DNA from: Escherichia phage EP75
Sequence record: MG748547
Reading direction: 5' to 3' (one strand)
Length of the DNA stretch: 64,000 bases
This document shows, piece by piece, positions 3,255 through 9,063 of the stretch. Each line of letters opens with the position of its first letter. Position 1 is the stretch's first letter. Under the pieces are notes generated by a model. That model had not been told where the DNA came from. It saw only the letters and a list, made by a program, of their open reading frames with translations, and searched no databases. Both the position numbers and the translations under genes were made by a program.

Positions 3255-3446
3255 TCATTTCTTTGGGGGTTTATTGTTACTTAAACGGATCACCTCTGCT
3301 CGAAGGAAGAGGATTTCATCGGCCATCATTTTACCTTCTTGAAACATAACATGACATCGTGATGATCTGGGTTCACCTTCCGATAATGCGTAAAGGCGAT
3401 ATTCGGGGATGACATCATTTACGGCGTTTCTTTTTGTTCTTTCCAT
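3255..3446 (-). CDS. hypothetical small protein (start uncertain)
   Basis: ORF 3255..3548 trimmed to an internal Met to limit overlap with the 3415..3621 gene; weak RBS. Confidence 0.25.
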   Translation of the reverse strand: MERTKRNAVNDVIPEYRLYALSEGEPRSSRCHVMFQEGKMMADEILFLRAEVIRLSNNKPPKK

Positions 3447-3621
3447 GGGTCTTGGCCTTTTTAGGACGACTGACGGAAGGACGAGCATGCCCAGGTTCCC
3501 CAGGGGTACACCCTTGTGCATAACGATGATCATCCCAGAGACGACCATTATGCGTCATATCTTCAGCCATGGCGGACAAAGCAAGGGTTGCTACAGCCGC
3601 AGCAGATAATGGTTTAGACAT
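3415..3621 (-). CDS. small secreted protein with signal peptide and lysine/arginine-rich C-terminal tail
   Basis: AAGGAG RBS 7 nt upstream of internal ATG (MSKPLSAAAVATLALSAMA...); signal-peptide-like N-terminus; KKKRRK tail. Confidence 0.4.
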   Translation of the reverse strand: MSKPLSAAAVATLALSAMAEDMTHNGRLWDDHRYAQGCTPGEPGHARPSVSRPKKAKTHGKNKKKRRK

Positions 3622-4060
3622 TTGTTTCTCCTTTTGCTGCATACGACAGAGCTTTTACGATCATAACAGCCAAACCGATAGGATCGTATGCATTGTCGAA
3701 TTCTTGTTCTATGTTCTGACGAATTTCATCAGAAGATTGTACTTCAGAGCAGTTCTTACTCTGTCTGCGTTGCTCTTGCTCGACTAGATCTTTGAACAGA
3801 AGGTCTTTGAAAGAATACTCATCGAAGTTTTCAAGATACCGTTGGATGCTTGGTTGTTTTACATCCATCGTTTGACGCAAATTGCTAATAGTTGAACTTG
3901 CCTGTTCGCGGTGTTTGTTCATAACAGCAAAGTTAACGGGCTTGCCCCAAGCATTCATCACTGGATTAGAGCATACTTGGCCAAAGAGATCTTGGAAGGC
4001 ATCATCCATGTGGATCAACGCAGTGGCCAATTCCTCATAAGTCGGTTTTTGAGTAGTCAT
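3614..4060 (-). CDS. hypothetical protein
   Basis: 148-aa ORF. Confidence 0.5.
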   Translation of the reverse strand: MTTQKPTYEELATALIHMDDAFQDLFGQVCSNPVMNAWGKPVNFAVMNKHREQASSTISNLRQTMDVKQPSIQRYLENFDEYSFKDLLFKDLVEQEQRRQSKNCSEVQSSDEIRQNIEQEFDNAYDPIGLAVMIVKALSYAAKGETNV

Positions 4061-4434
4061 TTTCGTTTACTCCGATTTTTATATTTCTTAGCCTGACGTT
4101 TATGTTGGGCGGCTCCATATAGGCGCGGCGGCTTTTGATAACGTTGTGACGCAATTATGTCTCTGTCATCGGCTTCACAATACGAAATATCTGCCTTCCG
4201 TAACTGAGCCACCGCTTGAGATACCAAGGTTTTGCGTTCACTTTCTACCAGATCATCACAAATTATCATGCGTTCACCTGGTTCACAACGACGTTTAGGA
4301 ATATCGTCTACACTGATACATTCTACTTCAACGCCTTTCAACTTTTCTTGAAGGATAAAGGCCATAGCACGAGCGCCCACCCCTCCTCCAATAATTGCAA
4401 TCTTTCTTGGCTTGTCAGACATAATACATTCCAT
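4057..4434 (-). CDS. hypothetical protein with Rossmann-like GxGxxG N-terminus (IAIIGGGVGARA) and basic tail
   Basis: 125-aa ORF; glycine-rich dinucleotide-binding-like motif seen in translation. Confidence 0.45.
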   Translation of the reverse strand: MECIMSDKPRKIAIIGGGVGARAMAFILQEKLKGVEVECISVDDIPKRRCEPGERMIICDDLVESERKTLVSQAVAQLRKADISYCEADDRDIIASQRYQKPPRLYGAAQHKRQAKKYKNRSKRK

Positions 4435-4484: not shown

Positions 4485-4910
4485 TTAGTCTTTGGATTCT
4501 ACTTTATCACCGCGCAGATCCTGGACGGGTTTGCCATCCGGCGACATGATGTAGATGGTGTTAATTGTCTCAAACCAGGATAGTTCATCAACTCCTTCAG
4601 TGTATGGAGTTACCGGAACTGAAGTTTTGATATGATCACCATCGTTATTTGGGGTGCCATCAGACTTCAGCACTGGCACCAGGAAGGCGAAACGACCATT
4701 TGGATAAATCACCCCGCCTTTAAACATCCGGATCTTCTTGCGAGGGTTGTTGGCCTCGCCAAGGCACACGACCAGATGATGGATCATCTCCGGACGGGTA
4801 AGCAACGTGTCGTCACGGATGATACCCTGTTTAATAGCGGAGATCACCACTTCGTCCAACAGCGCCTGCTGCTGGTCCAGCGTCAGTGATTCAGTAAGTT
4901 TCAGAGCCAT
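4485..4910 (-). CDS. hypothetical protein
   Basis: ORF trimmed to MALKL start. Confidence 0.45.
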   Translation of the reverse strand: MALKLTESLTLDQQQALLDEVVISAIKQGIIRDDTLLTRPEMIHHLVVCLGEANNPRKKIRMFKGGVIYPNGRFAFLVPVLKSDGTPNNDGDHIKTSVPVTPYTEGVDELSWFETINTIYIMSPDGKPVQDLRGDKVESKD

Positions 4911-5042
4911 TATTCGTACCCCAAACATTTGTTTAAGAAAGTCAGGACATCGTCCATGGTCTTGACCTCAATTTCAATGCCGAGTTGTTCCGCCAACTTG
5001 TTGGTGTTCTCGACGATCTCTTTGTCTCGCGCTGACATGATG

Positions 5043-5612
5043 TCAGCCTTTGAAGTTGATCGGTTTCTGAACCCCAGCGTCAAACGCGGCCTGGGTGCGG
5101 GTATCGCTCACCACCTGGCAGGTCTTGTCAAGATCGATGCGCGGGTAGCCAAACACACCAGCAATCAACGAACCAGGGAACTGAGCCAGCTTGGTTTCGT
5201 ACATCGCGCAGATGTCAAGCTTCTTGGTCTGACTGATACGGAACTCATCGCGGCCTGAGCTGATGACAACCTGGATCTCTTTGTACAGGCTGGAATCGAA
5301 CTGAATGTTCTGTTCCTGGATCCACTGCATCACAGCCTTGGAACCATCAGCGCCATAACGCCCTTCGAATGTACCTTTGATCACTTCCTTCAGGCCGTCT
5401 TTGTACATGTCAGGAATCTGCGCCGTCTCCTGAACTTTGAGCGTGTAGTTGCTCAGGTAGTTCTCGGAGTCTTTGTTGAACTTCTTGACCTGCTGCTCAG
5501 TGCGGTTGAAGTCGTTGAAATAACTGACGAAACTACCAACACCGATTACAACAAAAGCCAGAATCGCCAAACCGATGATCCAACCAATTGAAATACCTTT
5601 ACGCTGCGACAT
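5043..5612 (-). CDS. LemA-family-like membrane protein (N-terminal TM helix; C-terminal FPGSLIAGVFGY motif)
   Basis: N-terminal hydrophobic helix plus RDEF...AMYETKLAQFPGSLIAGVFGYP resembling the LemA C-terminal signature (recalled, not searched). Confidence 0.45.
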   Translation of the reverse strand: MSQRKGISIGWIIGLAILAFVVIGVGSFVSYFNDFNRTEQQVKKFNKDSENYLSNYTLKVQETAQIPDMYKDGLKEVIKGTFEGRYGADGSKAVMQWIQEQNIQFDSSLYKEIQVVISSGRDEFRISQTKKLDICAMYETKLAQFPGSLIAGVFGYPRIDLDKTCQVVSDTRTQAAFDAGVQKPINFKG

Positions 5613-5627
5613 CTTTACTTCCTCTTG

Positions 5628-6737
5628 TTAAAACAAACGTTTGTAAGTGCGACCATTGTACTGCATATGGCCTAATATGAAAATTGCGGTAAACGGAACA
5701 CAACCTAATAAAACGACGATAATCACTTCCCATGTCTTGAGGTCACGCCATTTCAGATACTCCATTTCCTTCATTTCAACGCGGTTATAGCCTTTGCTTA
5801 TATTGACTGCAACTTCTTGGAATACTGATATCCCCATGGGTTTGCCAGTCAATGAAAGACCGTTTCGGGAATGAAGTTCCATGTTATTCATCCCATCAGC
5901 AAATGACGTGGATTTACCCCAATTGATTTTCATATCCTTCGATATGTCAGTAACCACAATGACATCGTTCTTTTTACCACCAGACCATGCATATAGCAGC
6001 CCCTGAAAATATTCCACAGGCTGGCCAGAAGTCACTACCCACACGATATTGACCTGACGTGATGCCCCCAATGTTTTCAAAGTGTTGTTCAGATAATCAT
6101 TCCAATAATCAACGGGAATATCCATCCCTGACATATTCAAAACACGGGTTACTCGGTAATAATCATACACCCTCGGATATGACGGGATATGATCTTTGAA
6201 CTTCTCAGCGAATTGCTGGTCAGATTTAGAGAATAATGAATCTTTGTTGCCCAGCACATAATTCATATATGAATGTTCACGTGCCGCAGGTTCCCCGATT
6301 TTAACTTGTGCCCAACGCGGAGGCTCTGTAGTACCCTGACGATCAATACGGTCAATGCTCAGATCACCGACGGTTGTTAATACGTCCCAATCAACGTCAT
6401 AAGAGTGCTCATAGCACGTGCTGCAATGACGCGTTTGTGTACAAGATCGGTTATTTCCTGAACCAGAGCAAGAAGTTGTGTAATAGCACATACATTCATA
6501 AGAATGGCTACAACCCACCTTATTTCGTTGCTTGTCAGTAACGTACCCATTCAAAATTTCAACATCTCCCGAACTACCCAGGGAAAATGCAGCGTATGCT
6601 CCCGACTGGATAAGGCAAGACAATACGATAACAATGGCCGTGGCGATCAAAGTCTCCTTTGGCTCATGAGTCTTGCGGTGATATATCACAAACAAGATGG
6701 CCAAAATTACAGGAACCACAAACAGAAGGTAAATCAT
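5628..6737 (-). CDS. membrane protein with cysteine-rich ectodomain (two N-terminal and one C-terminal TM helices)
   Basis: 369-aa ORF; hydrophobic segments at both ends; CSHSYECMCYYTTSCSGSGNNRSCTQTRHCSTCYEH cluster. Confidence 0.5.
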   Translation of the reverse strand: MIYLLFVVPVILAILFVIYHRKTHEPKETLIATAIVIVLSCLIQSGAYAAFSLGSSGDVEILNGYVTDKQRNKVGCSHSYECMCYYTTSCSGSGNNRSCTQTRHCSTCYEHSYDVDWDVLTTVGDLSIDRIDRQGTTEPPRWAQVKIGEPAAREHSYMNYVLGNKDSLFSKSDQQFAEKFKDHIPSYPRVYDYYRVTRVLNMSGMDIPVDYWNDYLNNTLKTLGASRQVNIVWVVTSGQPVEYFQGLLYAWSGGKKNDVIVVTDISKDMKINWGKSTSFADGMNNMELHSRNGLSLTGKPMGISVFQEVAVNISKGYNRVEMKEMEYLKWRDLKTWEVIIVVLLGCVPFTAIFILGHMQYNGRTYKRLF

Positions 6738-7120
6738 AACACACCATCCACGAGTTGTTCCTTCGTCATACCAAGAAGTTGATTTTTATGAGAACTGTGC
6801 GCCCCGTTCAATTTGAGCAATTCCCAGCGTTCTTCATGATACTGTGGAGTTATTGCATCGTCAAAAGAAACATGGTGGCGATGCATAATTGTTGCAACGG
6901 TGTGAAGAACGATTGCTGTTGCTCTTTTTAAAGCACGTGTATCCGTGATGTGGTCTTCGTATTCGATTCCCATCAAATCGAGTTCTTTTCGGATATATGC
7001 TATAGACAAATCACCTTCAGAATGCAATTTAACGATAGTCGCTTTCTTAGGATGTAACACGCCGTCTGTTTCTTTCATGAACAGATCGTACAAATATTGT
7101 TTGTATTCGGGGCGCTTCAT
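6734..7120 (-). CDS. hypothetical protein
   Basis: 128-aa ORF, 4-nt overlap with upstream gene. Confidence 0.45.
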   Translation of the reverse strand: MKRPEYKQYLYDLFMKETDGVLHPKKATIVKLHSEGDLSIAYIRKELDLMGIEYEDHITDTRALKRATAIVLHTVATIMHRHHVSFDDAITPQYHEERWELLKLNGAHSSHKNQLLGMTKEQLVDGVL

Positions 7121-7621: not shown

Positions 7622-7789
7622 TTACTTTTTCTTCAGCTCTTCCAGCTTGGCTTCAATTTGGTCCAGAATCTCTTTACCTTTCTGGACGATGGCTTCACCG
7701 TCTTGCGCGTGTTTACGAAAAACCAGAGCGCCAGCTACGAAGCCGACAACAACGCCAGGAAGCGCATACACCAACAGATCTTGTAACAT
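7622..7789 (-). CDS. small membrane protein (55 aa, one TM helix), below ORF-track size cutoff
   Basis: minus-strand ORF MLQDLLVYALPGVVVGFVAGALVF... with GAGGAAATAAATC-ATG RBS; co-oriented with neighbours while listed plus-strand ORFs here are antisense. Confidence 0.35.
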   Translation of the reverse strand: MLQDLLVYALPGVVVGFVAGALVFRKHAQDGEAIVQKGKEILDQIEAKLEELKKK

Positions 7790-7827
7790 GATTTATTTCC
7801 TCACTTTTATAAGCAAGGATATTTATA

Positions 7828-9063
7828 TCATCGTTTCAACAAAGACATGAGGTTTACACTGGTCGACTTCGGATTGTCCTCTATATTCCGGACGGGCATT
7901 TTCAGATTAGTGTAAACCTCAGATGGTTCCCAACGCGTACCCTGCTGCAGGTGCCATATATGTAGAGGAACACCCGTTTCAAAGAACACAGGCATCTTCC
8001 ACTTCTGGACGCCAGGAACGTGCCCTGCAGGAGCTTTTTCGCACAACAGGGTATCTGGTAGCCAGAGGGAACGGGCTTCCCATAATGCCTTACAGGAGTA
8101 CTCAGGCCAGATGCGTTCCATGTAGTCGATCTCATCCCAAGTACGCTCGGCATCCCACCCGATGTAACGGGTATTCTTCAGACGGAAGAATTTCTTAAGC
8201 CAACAAGCACCGGAGGTCTCAAAGTTCAGACGATTGATGAACGTGATGTGGCCGAACTCTTCAACGCATTCCTGAAACGCTTTCTCAAGGTCGTTTTCGA
8301 GTATATCACATTCTTCGTCTGTAATAGGACAACCGTTGATCTTTTTCTTCCCGTGCTTGGTCACCCAATCATCACGGTTGGATAAGAACGCCGCGCCGTT
8401 ACGATTGGATTCGCTACCATCACGGTCACGCAACATGAAACCAGGGACGTCTATATCCCATATGTTACCGAAGACCATGTTCAGGGCTTCCAGGAAGTTC
8501 CATGCGCTCAGGCGACCGAAGTATTTCCATGACATCGCCGTATTCCACAGTTCAGTGAACTGGTCTTCCTTGGTAGTGCATTCCAACATCCAACGAAAAG
8601 AATCCATTTGGGTTTTACCACCCAACCAATCGATATAGGACTGAACGCACGGAATCATCTTCGACTTACGATAACGACAATCTGTATCGAAGCGCATACG
8701 ATCAAAGTTCAGGTTATACCAATCAGAAAATCGCTGAAACTCTTTCGGAGATTGTGGGGGTACAGGAAATTCACTGTAAATTGTCCATGGTCCAATCCCA
8801 TTATAGCAACAACCCCACAAAAAGGCCATCCAAATCTTGCGCTCGATCTTCTCGAGCTGTGTGATGCCTTCTGTAACCTCTATGGCATAATCCATCAGAC
8901 GGACTTGCTGGTTATGCTCTTCAGTGTAGGATAGCGCCTCCACCCATGCCTTGAGCAGGTACATGCGATTTTCTGGCTTACGATAATCTACTGCCAGATC
9001 AATCGGGTATTTCCATTTTTCAGGGGCTTTATACCCCTGCGGCATTTTAGAAATGTGTATCAT
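7828..9063 (-). CDS. 411-aa enzyme of unknown fold; candidate DNA-base hypermodification enzyme (possibly thymine pyrophosphorylase-type aminotransferase)
   Basis: large Trp/Cys-rich ORF in the same tightly packed minus-strand operon as a P-loop kinase and HAD phosphatase; function is inference from context. Confidence 0.3.
   Translation of the reverse strand: MIHISKMPQGYKAPEKWKYPIDLAVDYRKPENRMYLLKAWVEALSYTEEHNQQVRLMDYAIEVTEGITQLEKIERKIWMAFLWGCCYNGIGPWTIYSEFPVPPQSPKEFQRFSDWYNLNFDRMRFDTDCRYRKSKMIPCVQSYIDWLGGKTQMDSFRWMLECTTKEDQFTELWNTAMSWKYFGRLSAWNFLEALNMVFGNIWDIDVPGFMLRDRDGSESNRNGAAFLSNRDDWVTKHGKKKINGCPITDEECDILENDLEKAFQECVEEFGHITFINRLNFETSGACWLKKFFRLKNTRYIGWDAERTWDEIDYMERIWPEYSCKALWEARSLWLPDTLLCEKAPAGHVPGVQKWKMPVFFETGVPLHIWHLQQGTRWEPSEVYTNLKMPVRNIEDNPKSTSVNLMSLLKR

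Follow-up and report, generated by a model that had tools for sequence, protein, structure and literature searches.

A conserved two-gene locus in a Kuttervirus genome probably encodes a strongly diverged phage version of the LemA–TPM membrane module

Two adjacent genes on the minus strand of a Kuttervirus (ViI-like Salmonella phage) genome probably constitute a strongly diverged phage version of the prokaryotic LemA–TPM module, acting at the periplasmic face of the inner membrane; we give this reading a probability of about 0.55. The window is the 64,000-nucleotide stretch of Escherichia phage EP75 (record MG748547) that was analysed, and the two genes occupy its positions 5043–6737. The identity and architecture of the pair as a diverged LemA–TPM module are very likely, and the functional reading is tentative. 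Few two-gene membrane modules are as common in bacteria as LemA–TPM, whose cellular function is unexplained, so that the functional step for the phage pair is taken by analogy only.

The upstream gene (5628–6737, minus strand) encodes a TPM-like inner-membrane protein of 369 aa, and the downstream gene (5043–5612, minus strand) a LemA-like type II membrane protein of 189 aa. Both are real genes rather than chance ORFs, because 500 phage records contain homologs of the 189-aa protein and 485 contain homologs of the 369-aa protein, and both match PHROG families strongly (phrog_1383, E = 1.2e-86, for the 189-aa protein; phrog_2087, E = 1.4e-166, with more than 500 homologs, for the 369-aa protein). 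Named counterparts are Sajous1 gp97 and AR2819 gp10 for the longer protein, and Sajous1 gp96, AR2819 gp9 and Guerrero gp210 ('LemA') for the shorter one; the Sajous1 locus is 97.8% identical to the locus described here. The adjacency of the two genes claimed in the earlier note was confirmed, as they are separated by a 15-nt spacer (5613–5627, minus strand) that holds a Shine-Dalgarno-like AGAGGAAG before the LemA-like start codon. The start codon of the 369-aa gene overlaps the stop codon of a 128-aa gene upstream (ATGA), and the surroundings are a non-structural region near rIIA/rIIB and DNA-modification genes. Promoter and terminator scans stayed at chance level. The T4 late motif TATAAATA occurs once in 64 kb, and no ViI late consensus is known (PMC3184105).

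The assignment of the 189-aa protein as a remote LemA homolog, with an N-terminal TM helix that runs on into a long helix, the first of an all-helical domain, is strongly supported. Hydropathy indicated a single N-terminal TM helix at about residues 9–31 (5520–5588, minus strand), behind an N-terminal tail that is basic family-wide. This segment opens a 55-residue first helix (residues 9–63) in the AF2 model, which is followed by helices at residues 68–82, 87–100 and 107–143. The same layout, one long helix followed by shorter ones, has been described for LemA-like domains (bioRxiv 10.64898/2026.07.15.738315), and the 189-aa protein agrees with the LemA architecture in its length (approximately 185–200 aa in LemA), its single N-terminal TM helix and its all-helical domain, of which the first helix is long. 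Towards the C terminus, FPGSLIAGVFGY (residues 145–156; 5145–5180, minus strand) aligned with the LemA motif FPxxxxAxxFGF in both HMMER and hhalign alignments, with G155 and P157 nearly invariant in the family. The helix and the motif had both been pointed out from the sequence beforehand, and both stood.

The LemA likeness itself held as remote homology but not as a single-sequence match. LemA (PF04011) was absent from the Pfam results for the 189-aa sequence even at E ≤ 1; neither phage protein reached Pfam or NCBIfam thresholds, and single-sequence scans of both against Pfam, NCBIfam and PADLOC yielded no meaningful match. Because this sequence on its own finds no LemA match in Pfam, a plain HMM scan wrongly points to the absence of any LemA family match, the outcome that the earlier note had named as its refutation. 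By contrast, hhalign comparison of the 50-sequence phage family with 34 PF04011 proteins returned a probability of 96.4% (E = 1.2e-9) over 144 columns that span the TM helix to the C-terminal motif, whereas reversed, column-shuffled and unrelated controls gave 1.8% or less. A search of the PDB with the family HMM had LemA 2ETD as its top match (E = 0.0011, nearly full length), LemA was the commonest sub-threshold Pfam match in the phage family (6 of 50 members, best E = 0.0016), and a Lak phage homolog scored on the bacterial LemA HMM too. Absent from the phage family consensus are the near-invariant LemA motifs QLQRRxDLIPNLV, ENYP (ENYPxLKA) and GTENRI, and an 18-residue stretch including ENYP is deleted; the only LemA positions that still align are the C-terminal FPG..A..FGY, Y-N after the TM helix, R85 and Y138. 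A weak LeoBC match to the TM and first helix (E = 2.9e-4) was treated as noise.

For the 369-aa partner, a three-TM protein with a central region combining a family-specific Cys-rich β-domain and a TPM-fold α/β domain is strongly supported. Hydropathy revealed three hydrophobic segments, at residues 1–23, 28–54 and 333–359. The first two make up an N-terminal TM hairpin (6576–6737, minus strand; model helices 2–20 and 26–54) with a short basic loop that is predicted to be cytoplasmic (family loop charge +0.5). The third is a C-terminal TM anchor (5661–5741, minus strand; helix 335–358), after which comes a short basic tail, likewise predicted to be cytoplasmic (family C-tail net charge +2.3). 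TM helices at both ends had been anticipated, but the N terminus carries two rather than one. Holin matches in Pfam within the 369-aa family were set aside as noise from the TM helices.

The TPM α/β fold is present in the AF2 model of the 369-aa protein (pLDDT 89), at about residues 195–320 (5778–6155, minus strand), with the core motif LG..KQVNI..V...Y..aL...W.GGKKNDV.VV. No PF04536 match of the protein itself was found in Pfam, and PF04536 is the commonest sub-threshold match in its family (9 of 52 members, best E = 1.8e-4). Aligned by hhalign to 61 LemA-linked bacterial TPM proteins, the phage family scored 30% (P = 5.5e-4), or 7% once trimmed, and landed on the β1-α1-β2 core of the bacterial proteins; controls had P values of 0.2–0.5. 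The family profile had no match in a PDB sequence search. The RIEVGYGLEG loop, which hardly varies among the bacterial partners, is absent from the phage family, whose counterpart segment reads as a loosely similar I-x-W....SF. A TPM link, which had been suggested as a check, is backed by the fold of the partner and by the operons of cellular LemA with TPM; the PF04536 threshold is not reached, and the hhalign probability is weak.

Between the hairpin and the TPM fold lies the family-specific Cys-rich β-domain (residues 55–165; 6243–6575, minus strand), delineated by model β-strands at residues 57–128, by Cys and His conservation and by pairwise co-loss of Cys. It contains the dense Cys cluster noticed earlier, with seven Cys within residues 76–108. 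Across the family, C84/C105 and C90/C99 are each lost as pairs, a pattern suggesting that C84–C105 and C90–C99 are disulfides, and C76-x-H78-x3-C82 ... C108-x2-H111 is a candidate metal site, probably for Zn. The domain had no Pfam or PDB sequence match and did not occur in other architectures among the best 150 of 510 representative clusters. With its two putative disulfides and its CxHx3C…CxxH arrangement, it appears to be new, very conserved and specific to the phage version.

Both globular regions are predicted to be periplasmic and anchored in the host inner membrane, because the covarying Cys pairs look like disulfides and the basic tails fall on the opposite side of the membrane; the membrane setting assumed by the earlier note is in line with this topology. 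In the LemA-like family, two Cys are both present in 27 sequences, both missing in 23 and found one without the other in none, so that this pair, too, looks like a disulfide. The charge bias fits the predicted topology across the family, and TM3 (333–359) follows the TPM domain, as in a predicted extracytoplasmic domain tethered by a TM helix.

That the two phage genes are an obligate pair in fixed order is strongly supported, with an exception in Lak megaphages, where the LemA-like gene has no TPM-like gene nearby. In each of 80 IMG/VR viral contigs, the two genes share a strand and the TPM-like gene comes first, with a gap of less than 200 nt in 73 of the 80 loci, and the genus distributions of the two genes among GenBank phages are near-identical. 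Carriers are large virulent phages, both myo- and siphoviruses and including T4-like Aeromonas phages and T5-like phages; the pair was found in ICP1, PhiW-14, GAP32, an Acinetobacter phage and Lu11, and the hosts include Vibrio, Acinetobacter, Sinorhizobium and Xanthomonas. A third conserved gene was considered and rejected, as the genes upstream are unrelated (a Rv2179c-like exonuclease in GAP32, a PinA-like protein in the Acinetobacter phage and no match in ICP1). In Thermotoga and Neobacillus, the TPM gene directly follows cellular LemA, and PF04536 was detected in 58 of 61 ORFs downstream of cellular LemA genes, so that at least 56 species out of a sample of 80 show this arrangement. The LemA–TPM operonic linkage is therefore verified in cells, and the phage partner has the TPM fold and is adjacent at all 80 IMG/VR loci, upstream rather than downstream.

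The phage pair shares with the bacterial LemA (PF04011)–TPM_phosphatase (PF04536) operon (for example Thermotoga TM0961, PDB 2ETD, with the TPM gene downstream of it) a protein of approximately 190 aa with an N-terminal TM helix and a helical domain that ends in FPxxxxAxxFG[FY]. In both, the gene for this protein is translationally coupled with that of a TPM-fold protein fixed in the membrane by a C-terminal TM anchor, and the proteins of both are predicted to be extracytoplasmic. Unlike in the bacterial operon, the gene order is reversed, with the TPM-like gene first; neither phage protein reaches its family threshold, and hallmark motifs are missing from both. The phage TPM-like protein also has a TM hairpin where the bacterial partner has a signal peptide, an extra 110-aa Cys-rich β-domain, and a short basic tail instead of a Gly-rich one. 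The reversed order, the missed Pfam thresholds and the missing LemA and TPM hallmarks would also suit a convergent or spurious resemblance, in which case the membrane pair would be specific to phages and evolutionarily unrelated to the cellular module. Searches with the LemA-like fold lack specificity, and the TPM profile–profile scores are weak (7–30% by hhalign) even when trimmed to domains. We regard this reading as very unlikely.

Among the roles proposed in the earlier note, envelope or membrane remodelling would fit the family relationships of the diverged LemA–TPM module best, with no specific support for exclusion or lysis timing. The LemA-like and TPM-like proteins probably form one complex. 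During infection, this complex may serve as an assembly factor or membrane scaffold at the periplasmic face, where it would remodel or stabilise either the inner membrane itself or a membrane complex of host or phage. The LemA-like helix bundle would act as the scaffold at the membrane, a role that has been put forward for MamQ and ML0451c. MamQ is a single-pass magnetosome membrane biogenesis protein of the LemA family with its helical domain on the non-cytoplasmic side. It has been described as the sole member of that family with a link to a cellular process, namely the formation of membrane compartments (PMC4902198, PMC3905215). MamQ works with Mam proteins and without a TPM partner, whereas the phage protein has a TPM-like partner, and the two are likened by description, not by sequence. 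The TPM-like domain could contribute chaperone-like docking, as proposed for TLP18.3, Psb32 and AscF and in keeping with TPM as a chaperone-like assembly factor (PMC11237479, PMC12419801). Sequence identity to these TPM-domain assembly/repair factors is 10–17%, and the phage protein differs from them in lacking their conserved EVGYGLEG loop, in its Cys-rich fusion and in its LemA-like partner. Target recognition may fall to the Cys-rich domain, which is specific to the phage version and more conserved than any other part. By such analogy, the most likely role of the pair would be to scaffold, remodel or maintain inner-membrane complexes in infection.

A more far-reaching version, which we consider unlikely, is that the pair is a dedicated viral device for membrane remodelling, which would reshape or compartmentalise the inner membrane of the host or else capture a particular respiratory or transport complex of the host. 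A LemA-like scaffold related to MamQ would then act with a TPM-like partner, guided by a phage-only, periplasmic, metal-binding Cys-rich domain. Such a device, if real, would sustain the energy supply or make assembly platforms in large virulent phages, and its study would also expose the function of the widespread bacterial LemA–TPM module. The phages offer a tractable system, a strictly conserved and streamlined pair in about 500 sequenced large virulent phages, among them genetically tractable ones such as ICP1, CBA120-like Kutterviruses and T5-like vibriophages, in which knock-outs with simple readouts could show what LemA–TPM does. A literature search turned up no experiments on LemA or TPM proteins of phages, and several of its 'LemA' matches were author names.

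Small phage inner-membrane proteins with periplasmic parts, as in this pair, are also known in T4 Imm and Sp and in the Rz-type i-spanins; sequence or profile similarity to any of these was not found, and the pair is spread across phage groups that already possess such functions. A periplasm-facing complex could, like Imm and Sp, block DNA injection or cell-wall penetration by later phages, and such superinfection exclusion or envelope immunity would suit two predicted inner-membrane proteins with periplasmic domains that are encoded in a non-structural region near rIIA/rIIB and found exclusively in large virulent phages, a group in which exclusion genes are common. Exclusion genes are, however, usually lineage-specific and fast-evolving, whereas the same pair occurs across differing injection machineries and hosts, its Cys-rich domain is unusually conserved (50–70% identity between 50%-cluster representatives) and neither protein resembles known exclusion proteins; we therefore consider this role unlikely. 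Control of lysis is improbable in our view, whether the pair were to set the timing in the manner of a holin and antiholin or the 189-aa protein were to act like an i-spanin. The LemA-like protein does share the i-spanin topology (N-terminal TM helix, periplasmic helices, disulfides), and T4 holin T likewise has a large periplasmic domain containing a disulfide. The PhiW-14 endolysin gene lies four genes upstream of the pair, and lysis-inhibition-like behaviour was reported for CBA120 at a time when ViI-like phages had no identified holin (PMC3184105). Yet the locus has no o-spanin lipoprotein partner, as the overlapping 57-aa ORF (4910–5083) is devoid of a signal peptide or lipobox, and the conserved partner is instead a 3-TM TPM-fold inner-membrane protein. 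T4-like Aeromonas phages and T5-like phages, which have their own holins and spanins, carry the pair as well, and it is not consistently linked to endolysin genes.

Many RefSeq records, among them those of STML-13-1, PhiW-14, GAP32 and pVp-1, label the 189-aa protein a virion structural component, as does phrog_1383. This label is unreliable, because other records call homologs 'major capsid protein' or 'cell puncturing device', and it sits poorly with a protein that has a TM helix, a conserved membrane partner and homology to a cellular membrane protein family, and whose gene lies among non-structural genes beside rIIA and DNA-modification genes. In the LC–MS/MS analysis of CsCl-purified Sajous1 virions, gp96 and gp97 are absent from Table 6, which lists the identified proteins in the main text (PMC10892097). 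A structural role in the virion is thus highly improbable, and the widely propagated database annotations as 'virion structural protein', 'major capsid protein' or 'lipoprotein' are likely to be mistaken. With the pair read as a diverged LemA–TPM module, two of about a dozen conserved unexplained membrane proteins of ViI-like phages are now accounted for.

Both members of the pair are clearly real genes, given the strong PHROG matches of their products and the homologues present in 500 (189-aa protein) and 485 (369-aa protein) GenBank phage records. They lie on the minus strand at the positions given in the earlier note, the 369-aa gene at 5628–6737 and the 189-aa gene at 5043–5612. The start of the 369-aa gene overlaps the stop of the gene upstream (ATGA), and a 15-nt spacer containing AGAGGAAG separates it from the 189-aa gene.

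The likeness of the 189-aa protein to bacterial LemA, proposed in the earlier note, holds for the family profile but not for the single sequence, scans of which matched neither PF04011 (LemA) in Pfam nor any NCBIfam entry. An HMM built from 50 diverse homologues found 2ETD, the Thermotoga LemA structure, as its best PDB match (E = 0.0011), in an alignment spanning nearly the whole chain, C-terminal motif included. Comparison by hhalign of the phage family with 34 aligned, bona fide PF04011 proteins yielded 96.4% probability (E = 1.2e-9) over 144 columns, the TM helix at one end and the FP…FG motif at the other, whereas reversed, column-shuffled and unrelated-family controls gave 1.8% at most. 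Scanned one at a time, the 50 members hit LemA below threshold more often than any other Pfam family (6/50). The AF2 model (pLDDT 84) is all-helical, with a first helix of 55 residues, and agrees with LemA-like bundles as described in print (bioRxiv 10.64898/2026.07.15.738315); FPGSLIAGVFGY occupies residues 145–156. On alignment, the LemA hallmark motifs QLQRRxDLIPNLV, ENYP and GTENRI are missing from the phage family, and a phage-specific motif, GRYGADGSKAVMQWIQEQN, stands where they would be. From these sequence comparisons, we judge the 189-aa protein to be a remote LemA homologue in a subfamily of its own, not a Pfam-level member. The name 'LemA' is already attached to it in a few GenBank and UniRef records.

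More than 500 homologues of the 369-aa protein were found, none with a Pfam domain. A confident AF2 model (52 sequences, pLDDT 89) comprises an N-terminal TM hairpin (hydrophobic segments 1–23 and 28–54), a β-rich domain (residues ~57–158), an α/β domain (residues ~199–316) and a C-terminal TM helix (hydrophobic segment 333–359). TM helices at both ends had been expected, but the hydrophobic segments number three. Among sub-threshold Pfam matches in the family, TPM_phosphatase (PF04536) is the commonest (9/52, best E = 1.8e-4). Profile–profile comparison with bacterial TPM proteins gave a weak signal (7–30% probability; P = 5e-3 to 5.5e-4, against 0.2–0.5 in controls) that falls on the expected β1-α1-β2 core, LG..KQVNI..V…W.GGKKNDV.VV; the EVGYGLEG loop conserved in TPM domains is absent from the family. 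Our verdict is that the α/β domain is a highly diverged TPM-fold domain.

The dense Cys cluster of the 369-aa protein was also borne out, as seven Cys within residues 76–108. Conservation in the protein peaks in the β-domain that contains them (50–70% identity between 50%-cluster representatives), and an exhaustive phmmer search across 1.84 billion representatives detected no relatives outside the 369-aa family; it returned 510 clusters, of which essentially all the best 150 share one architecture and length. C84 and C105 are lost jointly in 7 sequences, and C90 and C99 in 4, which implies two predicted disulfides, C84/C105 and C90/C99. C76, C82, C108, H78 and H111 show little or no variation, suggesting a candidate metal site, CxHx3C…CxxH.

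In the LemA-like family, C135 and C165 occur together in 27 sequences, are both missing from 23 and never occur singly; with the two covarying Cys pairs of the TPM-like partner, this points to an oxidising compartment for the large domains. The LemA-like protein has a single N-terminal hydrophobic helix, as the earlier note held. Family-wide charge counts place its basic N-tail and the TM1–TM2 loop and C-tail of the TPM-like protein in the cytoplasm. Based on the Cys covariation and charge counts, both proteins are predicted to be anchored in the inner membrane with their large domains in the periplasm, where TPM domains and the LemA domain of MamQ are also known or predicted to lie (PMC3905215).

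In cells, LemA followed by TPM is a real operon, and a widespread one. Thermotoga, from which 2ETD comes, and Neobacillus each have a PF04536 gene directly after LemA, the stop codon of the first overlapping the start codon of the second. Scanning a single genome per species gave 80 LemA loci, 71 with a co-directional ORF right downstream; 58 of the 61 such ORFs aligned contained TPM_phosphatase (E ≤ 1e-5), so that LemA then TPM occurs in at least 56 of the 80 species sampled. The phage pairing is even tighter: among 80 IMG/VR loci located with the LemA-like profile (32–100% identity), all 80 carry a TPM-like gene on the same strand, in the order TPM-like then LemA-like, and the gap is below 200 nt in 73. 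An insert of 180–540 nt or a small ORF splits the pair in the other seven and in Lu11 (3285–3470). Compared with the bacterial operon, the phage pair has the reverse gene order, lacks the hallmark motifs, and has a TPM-like protein with an added Cys-rich domain and a TM hairpin in place of a signal peptide.

In GenBank phages, genus counts for the two proteins are almost identical, and carriers include Ackermannviridae, T5-like vibriophages, ICP1, T4-like Aeromonas phages, PhiW-14, Acinetobacter myoviruses, phiM12 and jumbo phages such as GAP32, RaK2 and Lu11. Comparison across phage loci found no conserved third gene beside the pair. Lak megaphages are an exception, with a LemA-like gene alone: that of the Prevotella phage Lak-B5 (3327–3878) scores on the phage profile at E = 1.6e-33 and on the bacterial LemA HMM at E = 3e-5, has no TPM-like gene within ±3.5 kb, and is a possible bridge between the two families.

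Together, these results make it highly probable (about 0.85) that the pair is, in identity and architecture, a viral version of LemA–TPM. A spurious resemblance is improbable, since two independent signals fall on the very two families that share an operon in cells. We found no paper that likens the partner to TPM or treats the two genes as a LemA–TPM module of viruses. We regard this finding as solid, and the pair as a practical way into a bacterial module that is ubiquitous yet uncharacterised, although the mechanism can so far only be inferred.

MamQ, essential for magnetosome membrane formation, has been described as the sole LemA member tied to a process (PMC4902198), and a membrane-associated scaffold role was recently proposed for a LemA-like domain (bioRxiv 10.64898/2026.07.15.738315). 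TPM domains have links to PSII assembly or repair and to a respiratory supercomplex; the case has been made that they are not phosphatases but help membrane complexes assemble in the manner of chaperones (PMC11237479, PMC12419801, PMC13456599). By analogy, we tentatively propose that the two phage proteins may form one periplasm-facing inner-membrane complex, whose task during infection would be to scaffold, remodel or stabilise either the membrane or a complex within it, with the phage-specific Cys-rich domain as its putative recognition element. Superinfection exclusion, with which the topology is compatible, seems unlikely for a pair conserved too strongly and spread too widely for a typical exclusion gene. 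Less likely again is lysis control or a spanin-like role: the pair has neither an o-spanin partner nor endolysin linkage, and is found too in T4-like and T5-like phages, groups with lysis genes of their own. Its appeal is that the holin of ViI-like phages had not been identified as of 2011 (PMC3184105). Least probable is that the 189-aa protein belongs to the virion, a label widespread among its homologues, as other records call it 'major capsid protein', 'lipoprotein' or 'cell puncturing device', and the homologues of both proteins in Sajous1, a 97.8% relative, gp96 and gp97, are not listed in Table 6 of the paper on its CsCl-virion proteome (PMC10892097).

The region shares up to 97.8% DNA identity with Kuttervirus genomes (Ackermannviridae, ViI-like Salmonella phages). 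The pair sits in a long minus-strand gene run between an amino acid:DNA transferase gene (ADDT; 411 aa, 7828–9063 (−); PF18724, E = 2.5e-57, and a weak aGPT-Pplase3 match), encoding the enzyme that hypermodifies thymidine, as is typical in ViI-like phages, and rIIA (913-aa ORF, 43–2784 (−); synteny with AR2819 gp1 and STML-13-1 gp170), which lies ~2.3 kb downstream of the pair in the same direction. The T4 late-promoter consensus, TATAAATA, occurs once in the 64-kb window (7820–7827 (−)), where it closely follows the ADDT stop codon and precedes the small-gene run leading to the pair; one copy against 2.3 expected is not above chance. The genes flanking the pair (6734–7120 (−) and 4485–4928 (−)) match only PHROGs of unknown function, and a Pfam scan gave no support for the dubious labels that Guerrero gives them, 'ATP dependent DNA ligase domain protein' and 'rIIB lysis inhibitor'. 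The same run holds two genes conserved in phages, for DUF7181 (3614–4060 (−), E = 4e-85) and DUF7231 (4057–4434 (−), E = 3e-65; weak N-terminal dinucleotide-binding Pyr_redox_2 match); the Guerrero label 'cytochrome c maturation protein' for the latter looks unfounded. A 55-aa ORF (7622–7789 (−)) whose N-terminal segment is hydrophobic, and which Guerrero calls 'putative membrane protein', adds a further small membrane protein.

OR844942.1, an unannotated 111-kb record named 'Enterococcus phage Efm 3-10', contains a 100% identical copy of the Kuttervirus 189-aa protein (76469–77035), which suggests mislabelling or contamination. Finally, the Cronobacter phage GAP32 encodes TelA (PF05816; 557–1705) three genes upstream of its pair, and Sajous1 gp200 is an SPFH/band-7 lipoprotein detected in virion preparations; these genes of a membrane-stress type hint that large phages carry a wider complement for membrane homeostasis.
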